Assembly (NCBI GenBank): GCA_030749435.1
Contig: JASMKH010000011.1
Coordinates: 3,325-67,324 of the forward strand
Reading direction: 5' to 3'
DNA: 64,000 nucleotides
Source of the DNA: Phycisphaerales bacterium
GTDB taxonomy: Bacteria > Planctomycetota > Phycisphaerae > Phycisphaerales > SM1A02
The notes below the pieces were generated by a model that was given only the letters and a program-made list of their open reading frames with translations, did not search any database and had not been told where the DNA came from. Of the stretch, positions 28,235 to 45,037 are shown piece after piece. Numbering within the stretch: the first letter of the stretch is position 1; every line of letters begins with the position of its first letter. A program made the position numbers and the translations under genes.

Positions 28235-28238
28235 GGGT

Positions 28239-29474: not shown

Positions 29475-29503
29475 TTGACACCCGCGGCCCGATGCCGCAT
29501 CAT
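29475..29503 (+). promoter_or_regulatory. Candidate sigma70-like promoter for guaB (TTGACA-17 nt-CATCAT)
   Basis: Perfect -35 hexamer at 29475-80. A 4/6 -10 match sits at 29498-503. The predicted TSS would coincide with ATG 29510. Promoter rules for this lineage are unknown. Confidence 0.25.
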
Positions 29504-29509
29504 CCGCAG

Positions 29510-30994
29510 ATGGAGCGTCTCTCGATCCCCGAAGGCATCACGTTCGACGATGTGCTGCTGGTTCCCCAGCGGAGCAACCTCACGCCGGATCAGGTCGATG
29601 TCTCGACACGCCTGACTCGTCGAATCTCCCTGCAACTCCCGCTCGTCTCCGCGCCCATGGACACCGTGACGGAGTCCCGGCTGGCGATCTCGTTGGCACA
29701 GGAGGGGGGCGTTGGCATCATCCACAAGAACCTCACGCCCGCGATGCAGGCAGCGGAAGTTGCCCGCGTCAAGCGAAGCCAGAACGGCATCATCACCGAC
29801 CCGGTCACGCTGAGCCCGGATGATTCTGTGCAACGGGCGATCGACTTGATGGAGTCACACCACGTCTCCGGGTTCCCGGTGACGCTCGACGGCACCGGAG
29901 GGGCCCGCGTTGCCGGAATCCTGACCCGGCGAGACATCAACTTCGTCGAGTCACCGCTCGATCGTGTCGGTGACGTCATGACGCCCCGGGAACGATTGGT
30001 GACCGCCGCCGCCGACATCAATCTGGCCGACGCAGAGTCACTCATGAGCCGTGGCAGAATCGAAAAACTGATTCTCGTCGATTCGGACGACGCCCTCGCA
30101 GGGCTCATCACGATGCGGGACATTGAGAATGTCCGCCGGCATCCGAACGCGTGCCGCGATGACCGTGGTCGGCTTCGAGCCGGCGCAGCCGTGGGCGTGC
30201 ACCAGATGGATCGGGTGGCAGCCCTCATTGCCGCCGATGTCGATGTGCTCGTCGTGGATACGGCCCATGGTCACTCTGAAAACGTGCTGCAGTCCGTCCG
30301 CGACATCAAGGCTGCCTACGACATCGACGTCATCGCTGGCAACATCGCCACGGGTGAGGCCGCCGAGGACCTCATCGAGGCTGGCGCCGATGCGGTCAAG
30401 GTCGGCATTGGCCCGGGAAGCATCTGCACCACGCGCATCGTTAGTGGGGTCGGCGTGCCGCAACTCACCGCGATTGCCAATGCCTGCGTGGCGTGCCAGG
30501 CCTCCGGCGTGCCGGTCATTGCCGACGGAGGTATTCGACAGAGCGGCGATGTCCCCAAGGCGATTGGCTTCGGGGCCTCTGCCGTTATGTTGGGATCACT
30601 GTTTGCGGGCATGGAAGAGAGTCCGGGCGAATTGGTGCTGCACGGCGGCCGACGCTACAAGACCTACCGCGGCATGGGCAGCATCGGCGCCATGGGTCGT
30701 GGCTCGGCCGATCGGTACGGGCAGGCCGGGGTCACCGAATCCACCAAACTGGTGCCCGAAGGGGTCGAAGGTCGGGTGCCGTATCGGGGCTCGCTGAGCG
30801 ACTTTGTCCATCAGATGATCGGGGGGTTGCGGGCCGCCATGGGCTACTGCGGATGTGAGACCGTCGAGGCGCTTCGCCAACGAGCGAGTTTCGTGCGGGT
30901 GAGCGGCGCTTCGCTGGTCGAGTCGCACGCGCACGACATCCAGATCACCAAGGAGTCGCCCAATTACACGACGTCCCCAAGGGGAAGCGAGTAG
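29510..30994 (+). CDS. guaB: IMP dehydrogenase
   Basis: [25 protein letters not shown] pair, [11 protein letters not shown] catalytic loop, [11 protein letters not shown] 29492 is the alternative start. Confidence 0.95.
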
Positions 30995-31049: not shown

Positions 31050-32180
31050 ATGCCAACAGCCAACGCAACTCAGAACGCCGAGCCCCCGATGCCCACGCGG
31101 CGACGGGATCGGATTCTCATGTTGGGACGCCGCAAGGCCGGCAAGACGGTCTTCCTGGCGCGGCTCTATGAACAGGCATGGCGGGGCGGTGATGGACTGC
31201 ACATGCGGGCCGCCGAAGGCGCGATGCACGAACTGTGCATGGAAATCGTGGAGCAACTGCACCACGGCCAGTGGCCCGCCGCCACCGCGGGTTCGCTCTG
31301 CAGCGAGGTCGAGGTCACGTGGCTCGGCATGCAGGCCACCATGCTCATGCTCGACTACCCGGGCGAAGTGTTTCGCCAGGCATTCGTCGAAGGTGGGGGC
31401 GGCGCGCAGGCCGACGAGTTGATTGACCATCTCGACCATGCCGCTGCTGTGATCCTGCTCATTGACCCGGGCAATGTGCACGCGGGCTCCGCCCGCGAAG
31501 TGGTGGACGATGACTATGGAATGGTGCAGGCGGTGGACTACCTCCGCCGCAGCCCGGGCGGCACTCAAGTCCCCCTCGCCGTCGCGCTCACCAAGTGCGA
31601 CGAGCACGTGGGACTGGTTCGATCTGCCGGCGGGGCGCGGGGTTTCATCGAGTCGAAGATTCCGAACCTGACGCAGTACGGCGGCCGGATGCGCATTTTT
31701 GCGACGGCCGCGGTGCGGACCCGCGGCGATGCGCTCGGTCGTCCGGTCCCCAATACCCAGCACGAGCCAGCGGGCCTCTCCGACGCGTTGAAGTATTGCA
31801 TGAAGCACGTCGGCGCCGCCATGGCCCAAGCAGCGAGAAACAATCGGGAGGCGGCCCGCCGCGACGAGCTCAACAGGGCTGCCGCCCGTGACCGCCGCTT
31901 CGCCCAGCAGTCGTTTCGCAGGTGGGTCGGTTTTTGGGTGGCGATGGGGATCTTCGGTGTCGTCGTCATCGTCGTGGCATTGTTCGTTGCGTTCCGGGAG
32001 CCGCAGCCCACCGAGTCGATTGCACCTCCGGTCATGGCGCCGCCGGCTGAGGTGGTGCCAGTTCCAGAGCCTGAGCCAGTTCCAGAGCCAGAGCCAGTGC
32101 CCGAGCCCGAAGCCACCGAGGATCCGGGACCGCGTATCGGCAAACTCAAGCCTTCCACTGCTGGCGGAAGCGAACCGTGA
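31050..32180 (+). CDS. Membrane-anchored Ras-like small GTPase (locus gene A)
   Basis: G1 GRRKAGKT (31125-31148), G3 DYPGE, G4 TKCD. C-terminal TM WVGFWVAMGIFGVVVIVVALFVAF, then a (PVPEPE)3 tail. GGGAG sits 5 nt upstream of the ATG. Confidence 0.85.
   Translation: MPTANATQNAEPPMPTRRRDRILMLGRRKAGKTVFLARLYEQAWRGGDGLHMRAAEGAMHELCMEIVEQLHHGQWPAATAGSLCSEVEVTWLGMQATMLMLDYPGEVFRQAFVEGGGGAQADELIDHLDHAAAVILLIDPGNVHAGSAREVVDDDYGMVQAVDYLRRSPGGTQVPLAVALTKCDEHVGLVRSAGGARGFIESKIPNLTQYGGRMRIFATAAVRTRGDALGRPVPNTQHEPAGLSDALKYCMKHVGAAMAQAARNNREAARRDELNRAAARDRRFAQQSFRRWVGFWVAMGIFGVVVIVVALFVAFREPQPTESIAPPVMAPPAEVVPVPEPEPVPEPEPVPEPEATEDPGPRIGKLKPSTAGGSEP
32058..32111 (+). repeat. 3 x 18-nt in-frame tandem repeat encoding (PVPEPE)3 in the GTPase tail
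   Basis: ccagttccagagcctgag / ccagttccagagccagag / ccagtgcccgagcccgaa. Confidence 0.8.
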
Positions 32181-33871
32181 TCTTCGAGACGCACCTCATG
32201 GGTTCCGATGGGGGCTATGGGGAGCGGGCGTGGTCGGCCGGACTGAGTGAGCGAGAACGCCAGGCCCTTCGGGACGTCGATCTTGGACATCCCAACGTGC
32301 GCACACTTGAACTCGGATCGGTCATGCTGTTCGGTCGGCCCCTCCCGGCCGGGCGAATCGCAGTGACGGCATGCGTTGCCGGGCCGAACGATGAAGCCGG
32401 ACGGCGGACTGTCGAGTTCCGGTCCATCGTCATGGCACGAGCGGACTGGACCTGCCGCGCTCGGCACGACCCCCCGCAACTGCTCGACGCTGCGCTCTGG
32501 GAAGATCCGTCCTTCGAGCAGGGCCGGACGCTCAATGTCTCGCCGGGGACGGTTGATGAGGCCGATCCCTGCAGCGACGCCCGCCTGCTGGCAGCCGCGG
32601 TGCGGCTGGGCGTGGGGCCGATTCATCTGGTCCACGGCCCGCAGACCCACGCGGCCATGCTGGGCATGCTGAGCGCACTGTCCGATCATGAGGCCGGCAA
32701 TCTGCGATGGGGCCTTCGGCTCAATCGCCCGTCCGCCGATCTTGACGTGGCAACGCTCGACCCGGCAGCACCCACCGGCGGTGTCAGCCGCACAACGCTC
32801 AAGGCGCTCCGACACATCGTGGACGAAGCACGGGAGGAGGCTGCCCTCCATGCCTCCGGTGCGGACGCTGCAGCCAGTGGCAGCGACCTTCCCCGCGGCG
32901 GCCGCGGGTTGCGCGTGGCGAGCGGGGTGCTGATCGCACTGGCAGTGGTGCTGACCGGTTGGTTGATTTCGGCGCGTTGGCAGGATGCCCCGGTTCCGCC
33001 GCCAACCGACCCGCCCGCCCCGCACCTTCCGACCACCGTGCCGAGCCCGCCAGTCACCTCGAGGACCTCGCCGAAACCTCACCCCCCGCGGCCGCCCGCA
33101 GATCCGCAGCCACCACCGGACCCGGTTCCAGCAGCGCCGCCCAACTCGTCCACACCCTCCGAGCAGGAGGCCCCCCCAACGCCGGATCCCGCTGTTCCGA
33201 CGCCTGCGCCGCCCGAGATCCCGAGCGATCCGCGAGTCGTGGCCGATGCAATCGGGGCCTTCAACCGCGATGCATTCGATTGGTGCGAGCACGCCGCCAT
33301 GGGCACCCTGACCCGGTCGGTGCGTCGGCATTGCATCGATGCCGCCATCACCGAGTTCTACGACTCCACATCCGGGTGGACTGCCCAACTCGGCGATTCG
33401 TACCAGATGCCGGACGAACTCTCACTCTGCACCCTTCTCGAACGAGCACAACGCGCCGATGCACTCTTTGAGTGGATGGGCGGGGGGACTACGCCCCCAT
33501 GGGCCGACCTTGATGAGACGATGGAATGGCTCCGCGACATCCCCGAACGCCCGCAGTCGGTGTGGCTCGGGCAGGTGAACGATCGCATCACGGCCCTCCA
33601 GGACTGCCAGCGCAAACTGGCGACCTTCACCAAGTTCCTCGCCGCGGTGCAGACCCCGTGGCGTCACGCGCCGCAGGCACCGTGCTCGCTCGAGACGGCC
33701 GCCAGAGAACTCGCCTCCTACCAGGCCCCATGTGCGCCGGAAGCCGTCGCGCTGATCGCTGATCCGCCGGGCACCAGATGGCCCCTGCGAGACCTGCCAC
33801 TCAACTCGGTGGCGAAATCCTGGACATTTCTGCAACAACAACGCGATGCTGTGACGAACCCCAGAGAGTGA
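32177..33871 (+). CDS. Bitopic protein: cytoplasmic N-domain (paralogous to gene H), TM, Pro-rich spacer, Cys-containing C-domain (locus gene B)
   Basis: GTG 32177 overlaps the gene A TGA (GTGA). TM is VASGVLIALAVVLTGWLISA. About 90 aa of P-rich linker follows. The C-terminal ~200 aa contains 6 Cys. Confidence 0.8.
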   Translation: MIFETHLMGSDGGYGERAWSAGLSERERQALRDVDLGHPNVRTLELGSVMLFGRPLPAGRIAVTACVAGPNDEAGRRTVEFRSIVMARADWTCRARHDPPQLLDAALWEDPSFEQGRTLNVSPGTVDEADPCSDARLLAAAVRLGVGPIHLVHGPQTHAAMLGMLSALSDHEAGNLRWGLRLNRPSADLDVATLDPAAPTGGVSRTTLKALRHIVDEAREEAALHASGADAAASGSDLPRGGRGLRVASGVLIALAVVLTGWLISARWQDAPVPPPTDPPAPHLPTTVPSPPVTSRTSPKPHPPRPPADPQPPPDPVPAAPPNSSTPSEQEAPPTPDPAVPTPAPPEIPSDPRVVADAIGAFNRDAFDWCEHAAMGTLTRSVRRHCIDAAITEFYDSTSGWTAQLGDSYQMPDELSLCTLLERAQRADALFEWMGGGTTPPWADLDETMEWLRDIPERPQSVWLGQVNDRITALQDCQRKLATFTKFLAAVQTPWRHAPQAPCSLETAARELASYQAPCAPEAVALIADPPGTRWPLRDLPLNSVAKSWTFLQQQRDAVTNPRE

Positions 33872-33873
33872 CC

Positions 33874-36207
33874 ATGTCGATCGGTCTGCGACATCTCGAC
33901 CGCGCAGTGCTCAGTTGCGGCCTGCTCACGCTCGCCCTCGGGTGCCAGTCCCCGCAGCAGGCCACCGAAGCCGCTGCCGACGAGACGCCGGTTCGAGACC
34001 CGAGGCCCGACGGGCGCGACGAAACGCGATGGGCGCAGCGGCAACGACCGGCCCCGAGCGCCACCTTGCCGAACAGCCAACTGTGGGCGGATGCATCATC
34101 CCCTACGCCGACCGGACGACCCTCGCCACCGCAGCGAACTGACGCCTCGGCAGCGGCACCCCCCCCGGATTCCCCCCCGGATTCCCCCCCGGATTCCCCC
34201 CCGGATTCCCCCCCGGAGTCCCCCTCGGAATCTCCCTCGGAATCTCCCTCGGAATCTCCCCCGGAATCCCCCCCGCAATCAACACCCCCCCCGGAGTCCC
34301 CCCAGCAGTCAACACCCCCCCGGGACGCCGCCCCGCCAGTCGATCCCCAGCAGCAGTCCCAATCACCACCGACCCGCACGCAGCCATCTGCGGCGACATC
34401 CGAAGACCTCCCGTCACCGGAGCGCCAGCCCCCCGCAACGTGTGATGGCGGTAGTGAGTCGGGAAGCGGTGGCGTTCCATCGGCCGGGGCGAATGACGCG
34501 CAGCCATCCACGTCTGCGCCGCAAGGCGCGACCTCGCAGGCAGGGGGTGACCCCAGCGATGAACCTGCCGCGGATCCCGGACGATCGCGGCAACTCGAAT
34601 CGCTCGAGGTGGCGGAGGGGGAGACCATCTCGCAGCGCCGCCCGGGTGGCCTCGACTCAAACGCCAGCCCCACCCCGCCAGAGGGGTCCGAGGCCGGTCC
34701 GGCACGTGAGGAGGGCGCCCAAGGCGATTTGGATGGCCACACGATGGAGCCGCAGGGCCTGCTTGAGGCGGCAAGGGCCGAGGGCCCCGACCAGTCACGC
34801 CCTGAGTGGGCCGTGTCGCCCGAAGCGACAACTCCGCCCGAGCCCGGGGCAGGGGGTGGCCCCTCGGGTGATCAGACCGGCAGCAGCGACGGGGACGCGG
34901 GCGGTTCGGACGGGTCGGGGGGGGCCGCGATGGAGGACGCTTCCGGTCGATCCGCCAGGGCCAGCCAGTCGGATGCACTCGAGCACACCGCCGGGACAAG
35001 TACCGCCGAGGGCGAGATCGAGGGCACACAGCCGCCGGAGCCGGCAGACGCCCAGGTGGAGGCTTCTGCCGCAGAGACCGCGCAGGCCGCCGGTGAGCGG
35101 CCCATCGACGTGGCCGCAGCCGCTGCTGCAGCGGCCGCCGCAGTGGAGAACGCGAGGAACTTCCACGCCGCCTTCAGCGCCGACCCGGGAGTCACCGACA
35201 CCGGTGACGATCTCGTTTCCAGAGGTGAGCACTTTGAGCCGTGGCACCGCGAGGTCCGCGGCGTCTGGGAACTCGTCTCGGTCACCGATGCCGATGAGGA
35301 CTTCATTCCCGGCGGCGCCACGCGTCGCTTGATCGGGATCGATCCCGTGCAGCGCGAACTCAACGCCTACATGGCCACCGGTGGGCGGTCCCGGGAGTGG
35401 CAGTCACTTGCATTCGAGGCGGCGTTTCGCAAAGCGCAGGTGGAGATCAGACCACTCGCCGATCGCCCCTCCGCGCTGGGTGAGCACAGCGGACTCCATC
35501 CCGCTGCAGTCGAGGTGCCCTGCGAGACCGCTTGGGCGAGGGAGGGAAGGTTTCTGCATCTCGCAGGTGGGGTCTACGCTCCGGGAGATCCCGAAGAAGT
35601 CGTCCAGATCATGGAGGCGCCGGATGTCACCCCGACTCCGACCACGCCCCTGGCCGGGCCTCTGGACCATGGGGCCGGTGGCGCATCGGCCGCATCTCCG
35701 ACGGTCGACTTCTTCGGTGTGCAGTCGCATGGTCGTTTCGTCGCCTACATCCTCGATGTGTCGCGATCCATGCGGGGTCGCATGGCTCGCCTGCAGGGGG
35801 AACTCGAAGCATCGCTCACATCGCTTCCGAGAAACGCGAGATTCGTGGTGCTTCCGTTCAACAGCACACTGCTCAAACTGCAGCCGCAATGGACCTTGGC
35901 CAGTCAGGGAAATACACGACGGGTTGGACGGGCGCTTGCCGACGTCGCGGCTGGAGGGGGGACCGATCCTGCCGAGGCCTTCGAGTGGGCGTTTCGAACC
36001 CTCGACCCCCGACCGGATGAGATCTACTTCATGACCGACGGCGCCGTCGAAGAGAGTCGCCAGTTGCTCAAGCGGCTTCGCACCTTGAATGCAGGAAGTG
36101 GGAAGACCCGAATCCACGCCATCGGACTGGGGCTCAATGCTGAAATCGGTTTCCTGAAGGCGGTGGCGGGGGACCATGGCGGTCGGTTCGTGCACGTCAC
36201 GCAGTGA
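33874..36207 (+). CDS. Lipoprotein with >400-aa acidic disordered linker and C-terminal von Willebrand factor A domain (locus gene C)
   Basis: ATG 33874 lies 2 nt after the gene B stop. Lipobox is LTLALGC. PPDS/PSES repeats are present. The vWA domain has an intact MIDAS: DVSRS (D at 35755), GGTD and MTDG. Confidence 0.85.
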   Translation: MSIGLRHLDRAVLSCGLLTLALGCQSPQQATEAAADETPVRDPRPDGRDETRWAQRQRPAPSATLPNSQLWADASSPTPTGRPSPPQRTDASAAAPPPDSPPDSPPDSPPDSPPESPSESPSESPSESPPESPPQSTPPPESPQQSTPPRDAAPPVDPQQQSQSPPTRTQPSAATSEDLPSPERQPPATCDGGSESGSGGVPSAGANDAQPSTSAPQGATSQAGGDPSDEPAADPGRSRQLESLEVAEGETISQRRPGGLDSNASPTPPEGSEAGPAREEGAQGDLDGHTMEPQGLLEAARAEGPDQSRPEWAVSPEATTPPEPGAGGGPSGDQTGSSDGDAGGSDGSGGAAMEDASGRSARASQSDALEHTAGTSTAEGEIEGTQPPEPADAQVEASAAETAQAAGERPIDVAAAAAAAAAAVENARNFHAAFSADPGVTDTGDDLVSRGEHFEPWHREVRGVWELVSVTDADEDFIPGGATRRLIGIDPVQRELNAYMATGGRSREWQSLAFEAAFRKAQVEIRPLADRPSALGEHSGLHPAAVEVPCETAWAREGRFLHLAGGVYAPGDPEEVVQIMEAPDVTPTPTTPLAGPLDHGAGGASAASPTVDFFGVQSHGRFVAYILDVSRSMRGRMARLQGELEASLTSLPRNARFVVLPFNSTLLKLQPQWTLASQGNTRRVGRALADVAAGGGTDPAEAFEWAFRTLDPRPDEIYFMTDGAVEESRQLLKRLRTLNAGSGKTRIHAIGLGLNAEIGFLKAVAGDHGGRFVHVTQ
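34159..34325 (+). repeat. 12-nt periodic tandem repeats with iterated C7-C8 tracts inside the vWA lipoprotein gene
   Basis: (ccccccggattc)x4, ccccccggagtc, (ccctcggaatct)x3, and related units. Two ~24-nt ...gcaRtcaacaccccccc units follow. Encodes PPDSx4, PPES, PSESx3... Confidence 0.9.
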
Positions 36208-36215
36208 TCGGTCCG

Positions 36216-37136
36216 CTACTGCGCAATGGAGGTGCCATGACGTATCGCGTCGTTGTACCTGAGCGTGGGTGAGGCGAGGATCGGTTCGACGTTGTGCTCG
36301 AACCCGCGCTCAACGACGAGTCGCCTCGCGGCGTGAAACTTCTCGAACGAGTCCGGCGTCACCCGGAACGAAATGAACTGCGATCGCGGTTCCAACTGAT
36401 CGAGCAGCGTTCCGATTGCCCGCAAGTCGTTGTCGGTCTCCATCGGCAGGCCGCCGTCCGGCCGAAGCTGGAGGCTGCGATCGATCCGCCGACCTCCCGT
36501 CCGAAACTCGCACGTTCCGTGGTCCTCGAAGGTGGAGGCGTCCGGATCGACCGCCTGCACATTCCAGGTGGACCAGAACCGGCACCGATCACCGATGGGA
36601 TTCGGCGTCAGTTTCCAGTCGGACCAGTCATTGACCAGATACAGGCGGTCATTTGTGAGATACACCTGAACCGGAATGCGATGCTCGATGGCGTGCCTGC
36701 GCGGCGTCCGCAGCGGAATCGTCTGCTTGTCCTTCGCGTCCTGCACCTGCCGCGTGAGGCTGCGGATGCGGGCTTGGCGGGCTTCCAGTTCACCCTCGGA
36801 ATCTGAGGCGCGGAGGTTGTCGCGGAAGCGGTCGATCAATCCGCCGAGTTCCAGCTTGATGCTCAGCATGCGTTCCATTTCACCACGCGTTCGCTCGCGG
36901 GCGGTGCGAAGCGTCATGTCGGCATCCTGCTCGATCGACTCGATGGCCAACCGCAGTCTGGCCGCCTCGAGCGATCGTTCGGGCGTCCGGGCTTCCATCG
37001 CGTCGATCGTTCGTTCGCCTCGCGCCGCGGCCAACACCGCCGCCAGCACGGCGATGAAGATCACCATGCCGAACATATTGCAGATCGTGTCGAGCAGAAG
37101 GTCAAGGCTCGACTCGTGCTCACTGGAGCGTCTCAT
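36216..37136 (-). CDS. ExbD/TolR-topology protein: N-terminal TM with conserved Asp, coiled coil, C-terminal domain (locus gene D)
   Basis: ATG 37136 overlaps the gene E TGA (ATGA). MRRSSEHESSLDLLLDTICNMFGMVIFIAVLAAVLAA has Asp16 at 37089-91. A heptad-like helical segment follows, then a Trp-rich C-domain. Confidence 0.8.
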   Translation of the reverse strand: MRRSSEHESSLDLLLDTICNMFGMVIFIAVLAAVLAAARGERTIDAMEARTPERSLEAARLRLAIESIEQDADMTLRTARERTRGEMERMLSIKLELGGLIDRFRDNLRASDSEGELEARQARIRSLTRQVQDAKDKQTIPLRTPRRHAIEHRIPVQVYLTNDRLYLVNDWSDWKLTPNPIGDRCRFWSTWNVQAVDPDASTFEDHGTCEFRTGGRRIDRSLQLRPDGGLPMETDNDLRAIGTLLDQLEPRSQFISFRVTPDSFEKFHAARRLVVERGFEHNVEPILASPTLRYNDAIRHGTSIAQ

Positions 37137-37909
37137 GGCTCCGACCTTCGGCCGGGGAACTGGCCCGTCGTGCTTGAGTCTTCGGAGATGAGGTCGATGC
37201 CGACGGCGACATCCGAGAACCGCGGGTCCCGGTCGATCTTCCGCATGATCGCCTGCCATGCGGCGAAGCCCGACGGTTTGATGCTGAGAAGCAGGTGCGT
37301 GGGCCTGGACGTCGAGGCGGTGAGCCACGCCTCGAGCGCGGCTGTCGCGATCTGCTCGGGTGTTCCGGTTCGCATCCGCGGGGCGATCCGCGGGTCGGTC
37401 CTCGAGAGCACGACGCGACCACCCATCAACTCCGTGACGAGCGCGTCGCTGTCGTCGTCTGCGACGAGGTAGGAGATCTGCCGCCGACGTTTGATTGCTT
37501 CAAGTTCACCTTGAAGCTGGCCCTCTCGGGTCGCCAGCCTGTCCAACTCGGCGAGGTCTCCGCGTCGCAGCGAGTTCGCGGCCTGCGTCTGCAGGGACTC
37601 CAGTTCCCATCGCCGCGACTCGACCAGCCCAGCTTCCAACTCCAGTGCGGCCTGGAGTTGCTCGAGTTCCGCCAGAATCACATCCCGGCCGGGCCGCGCC
37701 TGGAGTTCTTCGAGCCGGGCGCGGAGTGACTCGACCGCTTCCTCCGAGTCCTCGGAGTACACGGCGGCGACCGCCTGTGAAGTGCGTTTGCCAATGCTCA
37801 GCAGCAGCACGAGCGTGATGATCAGCACGACCCCGATCGTTCCGATCATGACGTCCTGAAACGAGAAGAAACTGATCGGCGCCGCGCGACCCGCCCGCCG
37901 CCGGCTCAT
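37133..37909 (-). CDS. ExbD/TolR-topology protein with long coiled coil (locus gene E)
   Basis: ATG 37909 overlaps the gene F TGA (ATGA). ISFFSFQDVMIGTIGVVLIITLVLLL resembles the ExbD 'IDVMLVLLIIF' segment, with Asp19 at 37853-55. An E/L/Q/R-rich coiled coil follows. Confidence 0.8.
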   Translation of the reverse strand: MSRRRAGRAAPISFFSFQDVMIGTIGVVLIITLVLLLSIGKRTSQAVAAVYSEDSEEAVESLRARLEELQARPGRDVILAELEQLQAALELEAGLVESRRWELESLQTQAANSLRRGDLAELDRLATREGQLQGELEAIKRRRQISYLVADDDSDALVTELMGGRVVLSRTDPRIAPRMRTGTPEQIATAALEAWLTASTSRPTHLLLSIKPSGFAAWQAIMRKIDRDPRFSDVAVGIDLISEDSSTTGQFPGRRSEP

Positions 37910-38796
37910 GCCGGTTCGTCCGGGGCCACCCTGACATGCGCCGTGATGTTGCGAGCGGCGTACTGCCGGCAGTCGTCGAGGAGCCGTTCGTCGCTCCGCC
38001 GTACGAATGTCAGGCTCAAGTGCAGCAGCAGGGCGGCAATGAGCCCCTCGCCGGTCGTGACAAAGGCCGTGTCGAGCCCGGCGATGACGTCAGTGAGCCG
38101 GTCGGTCAACCCGCCCATCGTGGCGTCACTTGACTCGAGCACGCCTCCGAACCCGGAGATGGCCTCGGTCAGACCGATGATGGTTCCGATGAATCCGAGG
38201 ACCGGGATGGCCCAGATGAGCCCACGGACGACCGTGTAGCCGCTGTCCATGGCATCCTCATCGGCTTCGGCCGCCGACTTGAGCATTTCATCCAGATCGG
38301 CGATTCGCCCAATGTTGCGGATCGACTTGAGCGCAATCACGACGCGGTCGAGCAGCAGAAAGCGATGCGGTTCGTCGACACCATGTTCGATCGAGTCAAT
38401 CACCCGGTCCACGGTCCGTACCGAGAGCGTGAAGCCAGCGTCAGAGGGCACAAACCGAAGCCGAAGTGCGGCCCGCTGCGCCGCAACCTTGCCAGCCTTG
38501 AGCAGCAGGATGGCAGCTGCCCAGCACGAGAGCAGCATGATGGGAATGGGGATGCCTGAGAATCCGGTGAGGTACTCCCAGACGACCGCGCCCCATCCCG
38601 TCCCCCGCACTGCCCAGGCGGTGGCATAGACCACGCCCATGAATGCAAGTCCGACAACCATCGAGGCACTTGAAGATGGCGTTGTGAAGCGCCCGGAGGG
38701 CAGGCCGAGTCGCCTCTCGGGATCGAGCGAGGCGTACGAAAGAACTCGAATGGGCTGCTGGTCCCAGGCCGCCGGCGGTGGTGCTGATCCCGTCAT
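37906..38796 (-). CDS. MotA/TolQ/ExbB-family proton-channel protein (locus gene F)
   Basis: ATG 38796 overlaps the gene G TGA (ATGA). Three TM helices. C-terminal signature WAIPVLGFIGTIIGL...GLDTAFVTTGEGLIAALLL. Confidence 0.85.
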   Translation of the reverse strand: MTGSAPPPAAWDQQPIRVLSYASLDPERRLGLPSGRFTTPSSSASMVVGLAFMGVVYATAWAVRGTGWGAVVWEYLTGFSGIPIPIMLLSCWAAAILLLKAGKVAAQRAALRLRFVPSDAGFTLSVRTVDRVIDSIEHGVDEPHRFLLLDRVVIALKSIRNIGRIADLDEMLKSAAEADEDAMDSGYTVVRGLIWAIPVLGFIGTIIGLTEAISGFGGVLESSDATMGGLTDRLTDVIAGLDTAFVTTGEGLIAALLLHLSLTFVRRSDERLLDDCRQYAARNITAHVRVAPDEPA

Positions 38797-41642
38797 GGCG
38801 CTACGAAGATAATCGCTGGAGCATGGGGCATGTTGCCAGGCCATGGCATTGACCCTGAGGCGTCGGAGGTATCGATGCGATGGAATCGCCAGCCCAGCGG
38901 TGCTCGCAGCAACACTTCGGCGGGCTGGTCGGCTCCGTCAGGCATGTCCATGGCTGCAACGTGCGGATTCTCGGAGTCCGGTCGAAGCAGGCCGCCGATG
39001 ATGCGAGGCTTCACGGCCTCGGAGAGTTCAGCCACTTCCCTTCGCCACGCCTGCCGGATCTCGTCGGATGATGGGGCGGCGTGCGGCGCATGCAGCGCCT
39101 GGCGGCGCACTTCATGCTGCGTTGGCGCGGCAGCCTTCGGCGCCAGTTTGACCCAATCGGCGGTGGTGGCACTCGGGGCTGGCGCCGAGAGTGTGTCCAA
39201 CCAATGCGCCCCGGCTTCAGCAATGCCCTCAGGCAAGGGCACGGCCGGGCTGCGCAGTGTGCTCCATACCGTGCGAAGAATGGCGAGCACGAGGAGCGGG
39301 TCCTGCTCATTGCACTGTTCAACAGCCTGCAGCAACGCTGCGGCCGCTTCGGGACTGCGGCTCCCTCTCCACGCTTCCAGCCCGCGGTGCAGGGCGGCGA
39401 CCGCGGGGGGCGGACTCGGTTCGACGCCGGCGAACATCACCCGCTGCGCCTCGTGTGTGAGGGGCTCAAGGTGGGATGCCGGAACTCGAAGATCCTGGCG
39501 GGACTCCAGACGCCGCCAGGAATGACCGGCCCGCTTCAGATAGTGGTACCCCGTTGGAGTCTCGGCGCGGTACAGATCGAGGAGCCCCGAGTCCTCAAGC
39601 GCCGCTTCGAGCGGGTCAAGATGGCGGGCGTCCTGCATGGCCGATGCGATGCGAACAAGCCGCTCGGCGGCGGATCGATACGGCGAGTGCATGCCGTGGG
39701 CGTCCAGATGTGACTGCAGGCTTGTCTTGGCGCCACCCACGAGCGGCAACTGGGGCGGCCCATCGGTGGACCACAATTGGGCCTCGGCGATTCCAGAGAG
39801 GCGCGATCGCCAGTCCTCGACAGCCCTGGCCGCCGAGGCGGCCTCGGCCGCGAGACCCCACTTCGCCCGGTCGCCCGCGTTGATGACGTCCGGATACTCG
39901 GAGATCAGCGTGTCCCACGCGCGAGCCCACATCGACTCGGTCGTCGGAACGTGGCTGAGTACCTTCAGGGCTCGTTGACCCTCCAGGAGGCGGTCGACCC
40001 TGGTCGTGGCGAGTGACCGCAACGTCGTGACGCGATGCTCCAGTGATTCGAGCCGCTGCTGCGTTGTGATCTCATCGGCGGCGGGCCGCAGGCGGATCGC
40101 CGCCAGCAGGCGAGCTGCCTCGCGGGCCTCGGCGAGACGGGCGGTCCAACCAGCCAGATCCCCAGGAAGGGGGTTGGGCTCCTTGAACAGCAACTCGATG
40201 GATGCCAACTCCTCCAGACGGGCGGTTCGCTCCTGTTGCAGCAGGGCCGTGCGGTGTGCCGTGGCCTGCTCGAGGGCCGCGTCGCTGGCCGCGTGCAGCG
40301 GTGGTGGAAGATCCGGCTGCACCCGGCGGAGCAGCGCGATGGCCGACTGGACGGATGCGAGCGAGTCGGCCTCACGCTCCAGCATCGACGTGGCTCGAAG
40401 GAGGGCGTCCTCCGCAGCAGTTCGACGGACGGCAAGGGTCTCGGATGCCCGCCCGATGGCGGCCCGGTGCGAAGCGATCTCAGCGACCTCCGTGAGGTGG
40501 GCTCGCTCGGCCTCAGCCCAGCAGTCCAGCGCCTCCGGGAGCCGGTCGGTCTGCAGCGCCGCAGCCATGCAATCCGAGAGGTACGTAATGGTTCGTGCTC
40601 GCTCAAGGCTCTGATGTCTGACGAATATGATCACCGCCAGTGCCGAGGCCACCGCGACGATGGCCAACGCGCCGACTGTGAATCGGCGGGCGCGGGCTCG
40701 CCGCTCCTCCGCGATTCGGTGGGCCACGCGGGTCTCGACGGTCCGCGGGATGGCAGCCCCGGCCTCGATCGCGGCGGCGTAGCGGCGTTCGATTCCATGC
40801 ACGGGCTCGAGTTCATCCAGCGACCGAACGAGGTCGATCACCAGATTGGCCTTGGCATCGACGCGGTCCCTGCGATCCTGATCGGCCTCGAGCCAACTTA
40901 GAACTCCTCGAATGGCGATGTCGGAGCCGCCACCGGATGCTTCGGCCTGCGTGCGCCACTGCTGCACGAGCTCGGCAGCGGCCCCTGCATCCATGGCGGC
41001 CCACGCCAGATGCAACGCACGTTCGATGGCATCGAGGCGGCTGCCGGCTGCTTGGCGGGCAAGGTCCGCCATCGCATCGTCCAACTGATGCAGGAGGTGC
41101 TGGCCGCTGGCGGTGAGGAACTCCATCCGCTGTGCCTGCCTGGACATTTCGGCAATGGCACGCTCGTCTCCAGACCCAAGGCAACGCTCCACTTCAGTTG
41201 ACCACAGTGCAACGGCCGCCTGTTCCAGCGGCTCGTGCACTCGTTTCCAAAGCGGGTTGTTGGGCTCGAGCAGCCGCAGGGCCCGTGCGGCAGCGAGACG
41301 CGCTGGGAGCGGCCGATCTTCCAGATTGGCCAGCGTCCACTGATCGACCTCGTCGCGGTGCAGCTGCCCGGTTGCGGGGATTCTGGCCAGCGCTTCGAGA
41401 GAAGGGGTGGCAGGGAGTCTCAAGCCGGACGGAAGTGGCTGCCCCGACTCGTGCAGGGTCAGGCACAGCCCAATGATGTTGCCCGCGTCGGCATTGAGCG
41501 CCGCTGCTGCGATGGCGTCCCCGCGAACCGCCCATGTGGCGCACCATGCGAGCGATCGGGAGACAGCCTCGGCTGCGGCCCGCAGCGTCACTTCGTCATC
41601 GGGCTGGCGCATCGCCGCTCGGAGTGTCTCGGCCTGATTCAT
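38793..41642 (-). CDS. 949-aa all-helical bitopic membrane protein (locus gene G)
   Basis: ATG 41642 overlaps the gene H TGA (ATGA). A single TM (FTVGALAIVAVASALAVIIFV, 40618-40680) splits a ~320-aa N-part from a ~600-aa C-part. Both parts are A/L/R/E-rich and helical. No catalytic motif seen. Confidence 0.8.
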   Translation of the reverse strand: MNQAETLRAAMRQPDDEVTLRAAAEAVSRSLAWCATWAVRGDAIAAAALNADAGNIIGLCLTLHESGQPLPSGLRLPATPSLEALARIPATGQLHRDEVDQWTLANLEDRPLPARLAAARALRLLEPNNPLWKRVHEPLEQAAVALWSTEVERCLGSGDERAIAEMSRQAQRMEFLTASGQHLLHQLDDAMADLARQAAGSRLDAIERALHLAWAAMDAGAAAELVQQWRTQAEASGGGSDIAIRGVLSWLEADQDRRDRVDAKANLVIDLVRSLDELEPVHGIERRYAAAIEAGAAIPRTVETRVAHRIAEERRARARRFTVGALAIVAVASALAVIIFVRHQSLERARTITYLSDCMAAALQTDRLPEALDCWAEAERAHLTEVAEIASHRAAIGRASETLAVRRTAAEDALLRATSMLEREADSLASVQSAIALLRRVQPDLPPPLHAASDAALEQATAHRTALLQQERTARLEELASIELLFKEPNPLPGDLAGWTARLAEAREAARLLAAIRLRPAADEITTQQRLESLEHRVTTLRSLATTRVDRLLEGQRALKVLSHVPTTESMWARAWDTLISEYPDVINAGDRAKWGLAAEAASAARAVEDWRSRLSGIAEAQLWSTDGPPQLPLVGGAKTSLQSHLDAHGMHSPYRSAAERLVRIASAMQDARHLDPLEAALEDSGLLDLYRAETPTGYHYLKRAGHSWRRLESRQDLRVPASHLEPLTHEAQRVMFAGVEPSPPPAVAALHRGLEAWRGSRSPEAAAALLQAVEQCNEQDPLLVLAILRTVWSTLRSPAVPLPEGIAEAGAHWLDTLSAPAPSATTADWVKLAPKAAAPTQHEVRRQALHAPHAAPSSDEIRQAWRREVAELSEAVKPRIIGGLLRPDSENPHVAAMDMPDGADQPAEVLLRAPLGWRFHRIDTSDASGSMPWPGNMPHAPAIIFVAP

Positions 41643-42463
41643 GGCTCGATTCCATTCCAGAGAATCAGCGCCAGCACCGCCACCAGGCCGATGATCACCA
41701 TCGGGATGATCCACGCGCGGCGCCGCTCCGGTGGTTCCAGTGAGAGAACCGCCGCCTCACCGGCTTCGGTGGCCGGCGCCTCGCGGGTATCCGCGGGCTC
41801 CGCTTCGGCCAGGTCCAGTACGCTCGCCGCGGCGGTTGGCTGTGACTCGGCCGAAAGGAGTCGCACCAGCACGCCATCGGTGAACGCCGCACCGCCGAGC
41901 AGGAAGGTGAGGTCCCATTGACGCTCGAGTGGAATCGCCTGTTCAAGTTGCCGCAACGCCTCGATCGCGTCGACGTCACGTGGGAGTCGGGCGATGAAGC
42001 CTGTCCCACGCAGCACGAGCGAGGCGAGGTGGTTGGCCCAGCGATCGTCGAGCGGGCCCGCGGGCGGGGCACCGACGCTGGCAGGCAGCCGAGGCATGTC
42101 ATGTCGGTCTGTGCCCGACCGCGAGGTGAGAAACCAGCCACTCTGCAGCAGCGACACCGGTCCGTAGTCGGGACGTTCGCCTGCCGGCAGCACCAGATGG
42201 TGCGCCACCCGACCGGGTCGATCGCCGGCTGCCCCGGGCGTGCGGGAGATTCGGGTCAACACGGAGTGCCAACCGCCCTCGATTCTCAGTGATCGATGGG
42301 CCACCAGCGGCGGCGTGTCGACAGGGGGGCTCATCACAAGCCCGGATCTGGCCTCAAGCGTTGCGGCATCCTCGGCCGAGAGATGCGGGCTCTTCCACAC
42401 CGTCGCAAAGCCGGGGACGCCTGCGGCGGTTTGGGCGGACCAGGTATGAATCAACTCATGCAT
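41639..42463 (-). CDS. Tail-anchored protein with an N-domain paralogous to gene B (GAP1-N-like?) (locus gene H)
   Basis: ATG 42463 overlaps the gene I end by 8 nt (ATGCATGA). MHELIHTWSAQTAAGVPGFATVWKSPHLS ... GDRPGRVAHHLVL. C-terminal TM AWIIPMVIIGLVAVLALILW. Confidence 0.8.
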   Translation of the reverse strand: MHELIHTWSAQTAAGVPGFATVWKSPHLSAEDAATLEARSGLVMSPPVDTPPLVAHRSLRIEGGWHSVLTRISRTPGAAGDRPGRVAHHLVLPAGERPDYGPVSLLQSGWFLTSRSGTDRHDMPRLPASVGAPPAGPLDDRWANHLASLVLRGTGFIARLPRDVDAIEALRQLEQAIPLERQWDLTFLLGGAAFTDGVLVRLLSAESQPTAAASVLDLAEAEPADTREAPATEAGEAAVLSLEPPERRRAWIIPMVIIGLVAVLALILWNGIEP

Positions 42464-43160
42464 GGGCAGCGGTGTCCTCGCGGAGGCCGGTTGCCAGGAG
42501 CAGTGCCGCGGCCATCGCTTCGGGTCCCTCTTCGACTTCGATGGCGCCGGAGTCGAGTGTGCCGCACCGCGCCAACGTCACGCGATTCGTGATCGAGATC
42601 AGCGGCGGTGGCGGCTGGCCCGACGCGGCCAGTTGAAGCGTGGTCGTTCCGGGCCGGGCAGGGGGGGCGTCAGTGCCTGCGCCAGCGAGCACGACCTCGG
42701 GCCCTCGGGGCGTGTCGGTCGTCGTCAGAAACACCGTGCGGTGCGACCCATCCGGAAAGGCAAGCATGCAGGCGGCGATATCAAGATCGGCCGTGGGCTG
42801 CGCGGCTGCAACCTGTGAGAGGATGATCTCCAGCGTGCTCAACCGCTGGCGGGCATGCGCGATCAGTTTGGTGCGGGTTGACGCGGCGTCGTCTCCAGTG
42901 AGTCGCACCAGGCCCGTCGCTGCGCTCGACCAGAGGCACTCGGGCCACGCTCGCCGGCATGCGGGGCAGGCCGGCTGAGGCGACCTGCCACCATCGGGAT
43001 CGACCGGGCAGCCGCCAGCATCGAACCGGGTGGGCATGAATCGCAGTTGCTGGTCCGATCCGAGCACCGGATCTCCGATGAGCGACGCCGAGGTCGCGAT
43101 GAATCGCGAATCGGTCGAGGACCCGCAGAATCCGCACCAGGGGCACGTGAAGTTCCTCAT
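42456..43160 (-). CDS. Cytoplasmic Zn-ribbon protein, possibly a degenerate (P-loop-less) GTPase-like paralogue (locus gene I)
   Basis: Start at ATG 43160; the longer ORF to 43220 would overlap tRNA-Arg. CPWCGFC ... CPAC Cys pairs. GLVRLTGDDAASTRT aligns loosely with the P-loop region of gene A but lacks GK[ST]. Confidence 0.7.
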   Translation of the reverse strand: MRNFTCPWCGFCGSSTDSRFIATSASLIGDPVLGSDQQLRFMPTRFDAGGCPVDPDGGRSPQPACPACRRAWPECLWSSAATGLVRLTGDDAASTRTKLIAHARQRLSTLEIILSQVAAAQPTADLDIAACMLAFPDGSHRTVFLTTTDTPRGPEVVLAGAGTDAPPARPGTTTLQLAASGQPPPPLISITNRVTLARCGTLDSGAIEVEEGPEAMAAALLLATGLREDTAAHA

Positions 43161-43213: not shown

Positions 43214-43287
43214 CGTCCACGGCAGGACTCGAACCTGCAACCTTCGGCTTCGGAGGCCGACGCTCTATCCAATTGAGCTACGTGGAC
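43214..43287 (-). tRNA. tRNA-Arg (anticodon CCG)
   Basis: Hand-folded cloverleaf: acceptor GTCCACG/CGTGGAC, D-arm GCTC..GAGC, anticodon stem TCGGC/GCCGA with loop CTCCGAA, T-arm GCAGG-TTCGAGT-CCTGC, discriminator G. CCA is not encoded. Confidence 0.9.
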
Positions 43288-43450
43288 CGAAGCGAGGAGT
43301 GTACCCGTGGCTCGCCGCAGGAGGGTGCGACGCTTTCGGGCTCGCGGCGGCAATCGCCGAGGCGGGGCACGTCCGGATCGAAGCCCCAAACCACGCTGCG
43401 GTAGTATCTCGCCGGTGACCGATTCGAACCAGCCGGAACAGACTGCAGCG

Positions 43451-45037
43451 ATGCTCCGCCTCACGAGCGTTCGCGGACCCACTGTGCCCGCAGTGGAAGT
43501 GACCCGATCCGGCGGTGTCATCGGTCGCAGTTCGGCCTGCGAGGTGCGGCTGGTTGACGCCACGGTCTCGCGGCGGCATGCCGAGATTCGCTATCTGGGT
43601 GACCGGTGGATGCTGGTCGACCTCGGAGGCGCGAACGGCACGTGGCTCAATGATGTCCGGCTCGATGCCGAAACGGCAACGCCGCTGGCGCCCGGCGACC
43701 GAATCGGGGTCGGACCATGGGTGTTGCGGGTGGGCTCCTGGGCACCAACGACCATCGCCATGGCCGATGCGGATGCAAGCGAGGATGCGGCACTGATCCA
43801 GCCGCTGCAGCCCGATGCTGCCGGACAACTCGCGCACCACCGCCTTCAACTGGTGATCGACTGTGCCGGACGGATCAATGAGGCAGTGGACGAGCGGGAT
43901 CTGGCCCAGTCCCTGCTTGAGTCCGTGATCGAGGGAACGGGCTACTGCCGCGCGGCGCTCGTTCGTCTGGCTGGCGATGAAGAGGGTGTCGAGGTCCTCG
44001 GACGCCGCTCAAGCGATGACGGGCCCCCCGACCAATTCAGTCGAACACTCGTGACGCGGGCCTCGGCTGGCGAGTTTGTGACGCTTGCGGGCCAGCAGAC
44101 GGCGGACTGGGGCAGGAGCATCGCCGACCTGGCGATCCATTCGGCCATGTGCTGCCCGGTCCAGGTGGACGATCAGGTGGCGGCATGCCTGTACCTCGAC
44201 GCGCGAGGCAGCGAGGATCGGGTTGCCGACGACGCCGCTGGATTCTGCTACGCCCTGGCCAAGCTCGGCGGGCTCGCCATCGCCAACCTGCGACGACGAT
44301 CGATGCAGGACCGGCAGCGAGAGATGGACGCCGAGATGGCCGCCGCTCGCGAGGCCCAGCAACTGATGGTGCCGCTCAAACCAGCGGAACTCGTCGGGTT
44401 GGACTATGCAGTCGAGTTTCACCCGGGCCGGGTCGCCTCGGGCGATCTCTTCGATGTGGTGGAACTCTCGGGCGGTCGCATTGCGGTGATGCTTGGAGAC
44501 GTGTCGGGCAAGGGCGTGGGCGCCGCCATCCTCATGGCTGCTGCGCAGGCCTTTCTTCACTCGGCCCTGAGCCGGCACGAGCACCCGAATGACGCGGTGG
44601 CGGAGTTGAATGACTTCGTGAGGGAGCGAAGTGCGGCCAACCGATTCCTGACGCTGTGGGTGGGCGTCTTTCATCCCGGGGGAACCCTGGAGTATGTGGA
44701 CGCGGGCCACGGGTACTGGGCCCACTGCCGGGCGGGCGGAGCCGAAATCCATTCCGCCGCGGTCTCGCCCCTGGTCGGCGCTCTGGAGGACATCGAGTTC
44801 GTGGCGACGAAGATCGACGTGACCTCCGGCGACCGCATTGTGCTGATGACAGACGGCGTGCCCGAGCAGCCCGATCGCGAAGGGGCGCCGTTTGGGCTCG
44901 ACCGAATCCTCGAGGTGCTCGAGCGGACGCGGACATGCCAGGAGGATGTGCTTGAGTTACTCGCGGCGGTTCGGGCGTGGGCGGGGTCCGATGCGCTCGC
45001 CGATGACACGACCGTTGCGAGTGTGGCAGCCCGGTGA
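43451..45037 (+). CDS. FHA-GAF-PP2C (SpoIIE-type) serine/threonine phosphatase
   Basis: FHA: GVIGRSSACEVRLVDATVSRRHAEI...LVDLGGANGTWLN. Central GAF-like region. PP2C/SpoIIE: GDLFDVV..., MLGDVSGKGVGAAILMA, DAGH, LMTDGV. Start at ATG 43451 is uncertain. Confidence 0.85.
   Translation: MLRLTSVRGPTVPAVEVTRSGGVIGRSSACEVRLVDATVSRRHAEIRYLGDRWMLVDLGGANGTWLNDVRLDAETATPLAPGDRIGVGPWVLRVGSWAPTTIAMADADASEDAALIQPLQPDAAGQLAHHRLQLVIDCAGRINEAVDERDLAQSLLESVIEGTGYCRAALVRLAGDEEGVEVLGRRSSDDGPPDQFSRTLVTRASAGEFVTLAGQQTADWGRSIADLAIHSAMCCPVQVDDQVAACLYLDARGSEDRVADDAAGFCYALAKLGGLAIANLRRRSMQDRQREMDAEMAAAREAQQLMVPLKPAELVGLDYAVEFHPGRVASGDLFDVVELSGGRIAVMLGDVSGKGVGAAILMAAAQAFLHSALSRHEHPNDAVAELNDFVRERSAANRFLTLWVGVFHPGGTLEYVDAGHGYWAHCRAGGAEIHSAAVSPLVGALEDIEFVATKIDVTSGDRIVLMTDGVPEQPDREGAPFGLDRILEVLERTRTCQEDVLELLAAVRAWAGSDALADDTTVASVAAR

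Follow-up and report, generated by a model that had tools for sequence, protein, structure and literature searches.

A cluster of nine genes on contig JASMKH010000011.1 of a Phycisphaerales bacterium (GenBank assembly GCA_030749435.1) brings together DO-GTPase and GAP1-N2 proteins, a MotA/ExbB-family channel subunit and a lipoprotein with a vWA (von Willebrand factor A) domain. The cluster was analyzed within a 64,000-nt stretch of that contig, here called the window; its genes are labelled A to I, and orthologous loci in other genomes L001 and so on. The plus strand carries genes A, B and C, and the minus strand I, H, G, F, E and D, in two operons that converge. We read the cluster, at somewhat less than even confidence, as the Phycisphaerae form of a GAP1-N2-type DO-GTPase system that may be coupled to a divergent MotA/ExbB-type ion-driven motor and may serve a cellular envelope role.

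Gene organization

All nine open reading frames (ORFs) proposed in an earlier note on this DNA were recovered at the same coordinates, and its description of a nine-gene, convergent two-operon locus between guaB and tRNA-Arg was borne out in flanks and tight spacing alike. On one side lies guaB (29420–30994; IMPDH match, E 2.5e-158) and on the other tRNA-Arg(CCG) (43214–43287). Start codons were refined to M33 in C, M65 in D, M25 in G, M21 in I and possibly M17 in F, after which the genes abut or overlap by 4–8 nt. A and B share the overlap GTGA, and the ATG of C begins 3 nt past the stop codon of B. The opposing operon has an 8-nt overlap between I and H, directly abutting genes at H-G and G-F (given an F start at M17) and ATGA overlaps at F/E and E/D; this overlap and abutment couples I-H-G-F-E-D translationally. 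The stop codons of C and D face each other 8 bp apart. E and G are 100% identical to the NCBI metagenome-assembled genome (MAG) proteins QF561_04555 and QF561_04565. An Rfam scan returned three tRNAs and nothing else, and a promoter and terminator scan of the locus stayed at background level.

Transmembrane (TM) helices were predicted by a hydropathy scan and domains by a Pfam scan against gathering cut-offs. The scan counted a single TM helix in each of A, B, D, E, G and H and three or more in F; I had no TM helix. Together with a lipoprotein signal in C, this agrees with the earlier count of eight membrane-anchored products out of nine. Pfam found DO-GTPase1/2, GAP1-N2, VWA and MotA_ExbB, all of them among the families that the note had named for checking; D, E, G and I matched no Pfam family. 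Across the nine proteins, NCBIfam returned just low-complexity TonB and GltJ matches, and PADLOC just sub-threshold ZorA and ZorB matches, with no system above noise.

GTPase and GAP1 proteins

A (31050–32180, plus strand; 376 aa) is a tail-anchored DO-GTPase, scoring 33.1 bits against DO-GTPase2 and 31.8 bits against DO-GTPase1 (gathering score 27). The motifs on which it had first been called a GTPase, GRRKAGKT (P-loop), DYPGE (Walker B with Glu) and TKCD, are intact. All, including DYPGE, are invariant across 22 orthologues, as is the C-terminal TM anchor (297–315). A PVPEPE tail had also been pointed out; it is present in the window but not conserved among orthologues, this short periplasmic Pro/Glu-rich stretch being found only in the window's subclade. 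It is encoded by a tandem repeat (18 nt x 2.8, window 32057–32107) that gives PEPVPE repeats. A search of PDB sequences with the A profile gave no solved-structure relative.

B (32177–33871, plus strand; 564 aa) is a bitopic protein with a divergent cytoplasmic N-domain, a TM helix at 247–265, a Pro-rich spacer and a periplasmic C-domain. Its N-domain matched GAP1-N2 with E 0.007 and 16.8 bits, under the cut-off of 24. The TM helix and spacer stand as first described, but the six Cys that had marked the C-domain are not conserved in orthologues, where this domain is hypervariable. H (41639–42463, minus strand; 274 aa) is a tail-anchored GAP1 protein. It matched GAP1-N2 (PF20013) at residues 2–126 with 35.6 bits, over the same cut-off, and has a TM helix at 250–268. 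H is shorter than its orthologues (median 360 aa; up to ~870 aa with GAP1-M). Neither GAP1-M nor GAP1-C was matched by Pfam in the window's H or B; GAP1-M is carried by H orthologues (E 3.9e-14 in L084; weak or faint in L003 and L087). The proposed paralogy of H with the B N-domain survived in a remote form: BLASTP of H against B found no similarity, but hhalign of the two profiles gave 82.6% (E 9.7e-6). The H and B N-domains are therefore putative remote paralogues, supported at profile level only.

I (42456–43160, minus strand; 234 aa from M21) had been taken for a cytoplasmic Zn-ribbon protein. The Zn-ribbon and the lack of a TM helix hold, but there is more to the protein, which is a degenerate second DO-GTPase. 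Most I orthologues are ~400 aa long and join a Zn-ribbon (ZnR) to a complete DO-GTPase with GAPGSGKS, LYDNAGEHF and (S/T)KAD (~40 aligned); they match DO-GTPase2 in Pfam. Decay was assessed against L001:4739-5902 and ~40 other loci. In the window's I and its close relatives the P-loop is degenerate (GDDAASTRTK in the window vs GAPGSGKS) and the Walker B/NKxD region is deleted, with the Zn-ribbon kept. I products of the marine subclade measure 234–241 aa in the window and 90–180 aa in L007, L011, L017-21, L028 and L033. From these alignments, I is the remnant of a second, ZnR-bearing DO-GTPase that decayed in the window's genome. Retention of the Zn-ribbon after GTPase loss suggests that it may have a role independent of GTP hydrolysis. 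I/H and A/B form paralogous GTPase/GAP1 pairs.

Motor-like subunits

F (37906–38844, minus strand; 296–312 aa, with its start at 38796 or 38844) is a MotA/ExbB/TolQ-family channel subunit. This earlier assignment was upheld by a MotA_ExbB (PF01618) match of 41.6 bits against a cut-off of 22.9. The predicted topology is MotA-like with four TM helices, and threonines in TM3 (GT) and TM4 (TT) are invariant in the alignment. No NCBIfam TolQ, ExbB or MotA model matched F, and its profile found no match among PDB sequences. A weak PADLOC match to ZorA falls in TM regions (E 3.9e-5).

E (37133–37909, minus strand; 258 aa) and D (36216–37136, minus strand; 306 aa from M65) are candidate subunits 1 and 2 of TolR/ExbD-like topology. 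E has a basic N-terminus and a TM helix bearing Asp19 in FSFQDVM. D combines an N-terminal TM helix, whose Asp is invariant (D16, LLLDTICNxFG), with a coiled coil and a C-terminal domain in which Cys and Trp are conserved. Both aspartates sit at the cytoplasmic helix end and are invariant in the alignments, and the TM motifs are kept in near and distant loci. The corresponding motifs are FIDVM in ExbD and LLDVL in TolR. E and D are paralogous to each other (hhalign 96.6%, E 5e-10). The E family numbers 1022 representatives, the best 150 of which are similar in length save a few fragments. An AlphaFold2 (AF2) model of E (predicted local distance difference test score, pLDDT, 74.9 overall and 80–96 in the C-domain) shows the TM helix, three long helices (~100 aa) and a C-terminal beta-beta-beta-alpha-beta-alpha-beta domain. 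We take the ExbD/TolR fold to have the same order of elements, which is a lead and not a test.

The ExbD/TolR comparison made in the earlier note thus stands for topology and the TM aspartate but not for profile or fold. Pfam scans of 27 E and 27 D orthologues gave an ExbD or MotB family in 0/54, and D matched no family at all. Searches of PDB sequences with the E and D profiles returned coiled-coil noise only. When both were compared by hhalign with an approximate E. coli ExbD query, the alignments covered the FxDVM motif alone and were not significant (11 residues, E 0.056, in one of the two comparisons). Foldseek with the E model placed no ExbD or TolR in the top 50, uS11 and RNase-H-like folds being nearest, and the PADLOC match of E to ZorB is weak and covers the TM region alone (E 0.013). 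ExbD/TolR identity of D and E is accordingly a prediction from topology, position and the invariant TM aspartate only.

Scaffold and vWA lipoprotein

G (38793–41642, minus strand; 949 aa) is a bitopic, putative scaffold protein. It comprises a ~320-aa cytoplasmic helical domain, a TM helix at 323–341 and a ~600-aa periplasmic alpha-solenoid. The AF2 model (pLDDT 80.4) places alpha-solenoid on both sides of the membrane. G had been described as all-helical and bitopic, which is right for most of its length, but beta elements occur at 691–711 and 881–947. Pfam, NCBIfam and PADLOC gave no match for G, and Foldseek with its model gave none at E<=1e-3, the best being generic TPR/HEAT-type solenoids. 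Every cluster type has a member of the G family (hhalign 100%, E 6e-50, and 99.7%).

C (33874–36207, plus strand; 777 aa from M33) is a lipoprotein with the signal ...LTLALG|C. An acidic linker and a vWA domain with an intact metal ion-dependent adhesion site (MIDAS) had been predicted, and both were confirmed. The C-terminal vWA domain matched VWA_3 in Pfam (E 9e-12), and among orthologues conservation is 90% or higher for the MIDAS residues DxSxS...GGT...TDG. The lipoprotein signal, an h-region followed by G/A/S-Cys, recurs in orthologues with a callable start. The linker is ~450 aa long, acidic/Pro-rich and disordered; it is repeat-encoded and variable among orthologues. A conserved ~170-aa domain precedes the vWA domain. 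In-frame spacer repeats at window 34160–34336 (12 nt x 10 and 30 nt x 2.6) give SPPD/SPSE repeats. Such tandem repeats could make the spacers of C and A variable in length.

Conservation and cluster variants

F relatives are encoded on 532 stretches across the 185,579 species-representative genomes scanned. The best 80 of the 532 are labelled as, or group with, Planctomycetota and come from marine or freshwater metagenomes; F has hundreds of close relatives, every one named Planctomycetes or Phycisphaerae. Some MAG records with the cluster bear the labels Isosphaeraceae, Singulisphaera, Klebsiella or Bacteroidia (L006, L049, L053, L063 and others). These labels look mis-assigned, or the bins contaminated, because the loci group with Phycisphaerae sequences.

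To assess synteny, the nine proteins were searched by tblastn in 84 related loci. I-H-G-F-E-D followed by convergent C...B-A recurred in nearly every locus that was long enough, down to ~45% F identity, and the facing stop codons lie few bases apart in most loci between 85% and ~45% F identity. Pfam annotation of independent contigs agrees with this synteny. The earlier note had allowed for two operons that are never syntenic elsewhere; that possibility fails because they are syntenic in many genomes. Chance juxtaposition was rejected on the recurring order and strands in related loci. Variants place A-B upstream in the same orientation, carry an inserted trypsin-like protease gene, or have an extra gene between B and C.

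A one-operon type was found at 40–46% F identity (L084 among them). Its first five genes encode a ZnR-DO-GTPase, a full-length GAP1 protein (N2 and M, ~870 aa), a ~1000-aa protein, a GYFx2-TM protein and MotA; a GYF-trypsin, a GYF-vWA, an E-like and a D-like gene follow. By hhalign, the ~1000-aa protein is a G homologue (100%, E 6e-50). A and B are absent from this type, whose operon includes a vWA gene of its own. The genes shared by both types define the core as ZnR-GTPase, GAP1-N2, G, MotA, E, D and a vWA protein. By gene content, the window type is this conserved core plus a second membrane-anchored GTPase/GAP1 pair, A/B. One MAG (JAKVBU01) holds both types on different contigs, two-operon L018 and GYF one-operon L082. 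Two motor-cluster copies in one MAG, again on different contigs, were also seen at L022/L023, L039/L058 and L050/L059.

Inheritance and genomic context

Twelve related loci have at least one flanking gene in common with the window, and five (L007, L017-L020) do so to the left and right of the cluster, where the genes run sdhA / hypothetical / FHA-PP2C / cluster / guaB / pilT-like ATPase. Within the clade sharing this context GuaB is 74–88% identical, and F (62–85%) and A (42–83%) are the best-conserved cluster proteins. Identities between L017 and the window were 83% for SdhA and 74% for GuaB, 65% for F and 58% for A, then 38% for I, 37% for C, 35% for D and 34% for E, and 30% for H, 29% for B and 28% for G. 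Six other contexts are flanked by genes for transport, glycoside hydrolases, mechanosensitive channels, a Bat operon or metabolism. One N6_Mtase/Eco57I-domain gene in L001 is the sole exception among the flanks. Among 2.9 million viral contigs of IMG/VR the F family was absent, with one weak generic MotA match. The conserved context, the ordinary flanks and the absence from viral contigs indicate that the cluster is a vertically inherited chromosomal system and not a mobile island. A mobile island beside the tRNA gene was considered separately and rejected, because in and near the cluster G+C content stays inside the range seen elsewhere in the window (~65% overall) and the gene context is conserved.

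Upstream of guaB, two ORFs with T2SSE domains (PilB/PilT-type secretion ATPase) lie on the minus strand at window 26576–28726 and 28239–29396. They overlap as listed, and one start call must therefore be wrong. The PilT-like T2SSE protein is 81–90% identical in related loci and belongs to the conserved neighborhood. Just past tRNA-Arg, a gene encoding FHA and SpoIIE/PP2C phosphatase domains (window 43307–45037, plus strand) diverges from the I operon. Its adjacency is kept in the marine clade (L005, L007, L011, L014, L017-21, L057) and not in other clades. The FHA-PP2C gene was rejected as a system member because its conservation is limited to the clade that shares the entire neighborhood. A kinase/PP2C theme has been described for other GAP1-N2 systems (Kaur et al. 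2020, PMC7159879); a regulatory link between FHA-PP2C and the cluster is conceivable but unsupported.

Mechanosensitive channel genes lie directly upstream of the I-type GTPase gene in three loci (L001:2976-4571, L088:3138-4574 and L086:251-4333), as MscL with DUF481 in two and as a large MscS-like protein in the third. They may be coincidental neighbors or a hint of a link to membrane tension. In one freshwater lineage, a Bat-type operon with BatD and two VWA proteins (L087:16180-20867) lies a few kb past the cluster's vWA gene.

Proposed mechanism and alternatives

In the reading favored here, the intact GTPase A, together with I and the GAP1-N2 partners H and B, would form a membrane-tethered switch on the cytoplasmic face. 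F would assemble as a pentamer around an E/D heterodimer, by analogy with the 5:2 motors ExbBD, TolQR and MotAB, and ion flow via an Asp/Thr pathway would drive E/D movement. Motor assembly or activation may be gated by the nucleotide state of A (and ancestrally of I), which H and B, through their GAP1-N2 domains, and G, through its cytoplasmic domain, would read or set. Work would pass via the E/D coiled-coil stalks and the periplasmic solenoid of G to C at the outer envelope, where C would contribute its vWA head, MIDAS-competent and held on a long flexible tether. The role could be regulated adhesion, surface translocation or outer-membrane tethering, in a logic that would parallel Agl-Glt. 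The GTPase switch, inner-membrane stator-like unit and periplasmic MIDAS head envisaged at the outset are consistent with everything found. No toxic effector domain was recognizable in the window cluster by Pfam, NCBIfam or PADLOC, and no nuclease, pore-former or protease. An envelope role is favored because of vertical inheritance, the non-defense flanks, this lack of a toxic effector, the Agl-Glt parallel and the vWA transducers predicted in Planctomycetes-Verrucomicrobia-Chlamydiae (PVC) bacteria.

Several points weigh against this. Every functional step is one that we infer. D and E fail every ExbD, TolR and MotB profile test, the C-domain of E is nearest to uS11/RNase-H-like folds by Foldseek, and the DO-GTPase/GAP1 Pfam families are defined as components of conflict systems. 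G, H, B and I are just 28–38% identical where GuaB is 74% identical, and the GTPase loss in I and the hypervariable periplasmic domain of B speak of fast evolution or decay. Paralogous clusters in some genomes and trypsin-like proteases in variants fit an arms race or relaxed constraint. Finally, L086 has I-H-G-F-E-D with no A-B-C within 10 kb on either side.

A bolder version is possible, though we would not count on it: the cluster may represent a new class of machine in which a 5:2-type motor is gated by GTPase/GAP1 pairs, vertically inherited and serving a basic envelope process. Outer-membrane constriction or tethering, or adhesion or translocation via the vWA lipoprotein, would be candidate processes. 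The phylum is reported to lack FtsZ.

An envelope-surveillance conflict or defense system, as Kaur et al. proposed for DO-GTPase/GAP1, is a serious alternative that we nonetheless consider unlikely. The C-domain of B, the vWA head of C and the solenoid of G would sense phage or envelope damage and flip the GTPase via GAP1-N2. F/E/D would then act as a Zorya-like mechanosensor or as a proton leak for abortive infection, with trypsin-like proteases in the variants. The DO-GTPase and GAP1-N2 families were indeed defined in predicted conflict systems, although the conflict role is itself only a prediction in that work. The hypervariable periplasmic domain of B and the fast divergence of G, H and I would suit such sensing, but among the cluster proteins F and A stand out as well conserved, which typical defense sensors are not. 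Loss of the I GTPase in some lineages, variable accessories (trypsin, GYF-trypsin and an extra 409-aa gene) and two cluster types within one MAG also point toward conflict; the window cluster, by contrast, contains no nuclease, pore-former or protease. F and E match ZorA and ZorB weakly, yet no PADLOC system rises above noise. The single N6_Mtase/Eco57I-domain gene in one flank must be set against a stable site between housekeeping genes across a clade, other flanks that are not defense genes, and a family of F that is essentially absent from viral contigs.

It is improbable that the locus consists of two separate neighboring modules, a GTPase-motor (I-H-G-F-E-D) and a GTPase/GAP1 pair with a vWA lipoprotein (A-B-C), whose adjacency reflects common descent or co-regulation and not physical assembly. 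L086, with the first operon and none of A, B or C nearby, suits this view, as do lineages that place A-B upstream in the same orientation or a trypsin gene between A-B and I. However, the convergent arrangement is kept in most loci across the F identities given above, and the paralogous I/H and A/B pairs match the "double GTPase" theme of Kaur et al. The one-operon variant, which has no A/B and its own vWA gene inside, cuts both ways, as a vWA protein is found in both cluster types and is thereby suggested as a core member. The weakest alternative, a divergent but ordinary Ton or Tol-Pal system for nutrient import or outer-membrane tethering with incidental GTPases, is highly improbable and already largely refuted: the MotA_ExbB family of F, two TolR-like subunits (cf. 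ExbB-ExbD1-ExbD2 clusters) and the weak low-complexity TonB/GltJ matches of the Pro-rich A and B spacers recall such systems, but the nine proteins include no TonB, TolA, TolB, Pal, OmpA-like domain or TonB-dependent receptor, no NCBIfam TolQ/ExbB/TolR/ExbD match and, by eye, neither an SHLS/His motif nor any His in any TM helix of the nine translations, and the GTPase/GAP1 genes sit in the same operon with translational coupling and are everywhere conserved along with it.

Under the favored GTPase-coupled motor, the DO-GTPase/GAP1-N2 pair, known from one computational paper, would gain an invariable partner in one lineage, a MotA/ExbB-type motor. That partner would turn a vague "conflict system" into a testable mechanism and add a predicted GTPase-regulated member to the growing set of 5:2 motors (Ton, Tol, Mot, Gld, Agl, Zor). 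A second case of GTPase, motor and vWA-lipoprotein logic would also result, which we regard as independent of Agl-Glt given the lack of homology between them. Of the 532 places with an F relative, the best 80 are in planctomycetes, whose envelope biology is poorly understood. Were the cluster merely a lineage-specific defense, it would still be a new, Zorya-like use of a stator unit. Were it a new class of envelope machine, DO-GTPase/GAP1 "conflict systems" would need reinterpretation as envelope or cytoskeletal regulators. The locus should interest those who study 5:2 motors, bacterial GTPases and planctomycete envelopes.

Comparison with known systems

The earlier note recognized no Tol-Pal, Ton, flagellar, Agl/Glt, GldLM or Zorya system and saw no OmpA, TonB, Pal or nuclease/effector domain; NCBIfam and PADLOC support the exclusions, and the domain scans found none of these domains. 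The TonB NCBIfam matches are Pro-rich low complexity in the A and B spacers, at 15 bits against a cut-off of 448. With Zorya there are clear differences: F is ~300 aa long vs 461–780 positions in the ZorA models and lacks the long ZorA tail. PADLOC found no ZorC-G match, and the cluster has no peptidoglycan-binding domain.

Measured against the 5:2 motors (ExbB-ExbD, TolQ-TolR, MotA-MotB, ZorA-ZorB), F belongs to the MotA_ExbB family and has invariant threonines in its last two TM helices. The coupled downstream genes encode single-pass proteins with a basic N-terminus and a TM Asp (FQDVM / LLDT). Unlike those motors, the cluster has no ExbD, MotB or OmpA Pfam match and no TolQ, ExbB or MotA NCBIfam match; E and D have ~100-aa helical stalks and C-domains assigned to no family, and the F, E and D profiles have no PDB relative beyond coiled-coil noise.

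A TolQ-like gene with two heterologous TolR-like genes and a vWA protein was predicted in PVC bacteria in 2025, in the section of PMC12204202 on vWA sets, which predicts vWA proteins as outputs or force transducers of TolQ/TolR-like motors. The present cluster resembles those sets in its superphylum, and both sides are purely predicted. The vWA proteins described there are anchored in the inner membrane via a TonB/TolA-like TM helix (SHLS/His) or an Asp-bearing transpore helix. C, in contrast, is a lipoprotein encoded in a convergent operon and has neither helix, the sets being compared by description. That section makes no mention of GTPase or GAP1 genes.

The Agl-Glt system of Myxococcus xanthus combines a TolQR-like motor driven by proton motive force (PMF) with the MglA GTPase, GltJ and CglB (PMC11135422, PMC9946355). 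GltJ is a Zn-ribbon/GYF protein that reads the GTPase, and CglB is a vWA/MIDAS outer-membrane lipoprotein adhesin (PMC11135422, PMC9946355). No homology links the two: the GTPase here is a DO-GTPase and not MglA, and no Glt, Cgl or Agl family was matched, the GltJ NCBIfam matches (16–17 bits vs a cut-off of 450) lying in low-complexity regions. By functional analogy only, the systems share a PMF motor, a GTPase switch, Pro-rich bitopic periplasm-spanning proteins and a vWA lipoprotein, and GYF domains occur in the one-operon variant of the cluster.

The closest precedent is the work of Kaur, Burroughs, Iyer and Aravind (2020; eLife 9:e52696, PMC7159879), in which DO-GTPase and GAP1-N2 form the core of predicted "GTPase-centric conflict systems", a conflict role that is itself a prediction. 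There, DO-GTPase belongs to the TRAFAC clade of GTPases and has a Glu conserved in its Walker B motif, and GAP1 has three domains, N, M and C, with the GAP1-N2 gene downstream of the GTPase gene (PMC7159879). A "double GTPase" theme pairs two paralogous GTPases, one with N-terminal Zn-ribbon(s) and the other with a C-terminal TM helix; fibronectin type III (FNIII) repeat proteins, vWA proteins, frequent TM anchoring and occurrence in planctomycetes are also described, and GYF-trypsin genes are noted in planctomycetes (PMC7159879). Searching the literature for the combination, or by Pfam accession, turned up no other relevant paper.

The present cluster departs from these systems in several respects. 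It has no FNIII protein (no FNIII at Pfam level in the nine proteins or the L084 variant), and the tubulin, HSP70/GrpE and kinase/PP2C themes are all missing from it. H of the window has no detectable GAP1-M/C, and the locus is vertically inherited and not island-like. Its likenesses go to the core of the theme: A is a DO-GTPase with the Walker-B Glu, over the gathering score; H (GAP1-N2) lies directly downstream of I, and B, sub-threshold, downstream of A. Ancestrally, the ZnR and full GTPase of I orthologues and the C-terminal TM helix of A fit the pairing of the two GTPases. TM anchoring, a vWA protein and a planctomycete host are shared, and the one-operon variant carries their GYF/trypsin genes. 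The earlier description of the locus as undescribed therefore needs qualifying twice: the GTPase and GAP1-N2 core was already predicted by Kaur et al., and a TolQ/two-TolR-like/vWA set has a predicted counterpart in PVC bacteria (PMC12204202, section on vWA sets). What stands is the set of invariable partners, the MotA/ExbB protein, the two TolR-like subunits and the G solenoid, which are unmentioned in the main text and one supplementary file of PMC7159879. The predicted coupling of the GTPase/GAP1 core to a motor and to G is likewise absent from those texts and from the other papers searched, and appears to be new.

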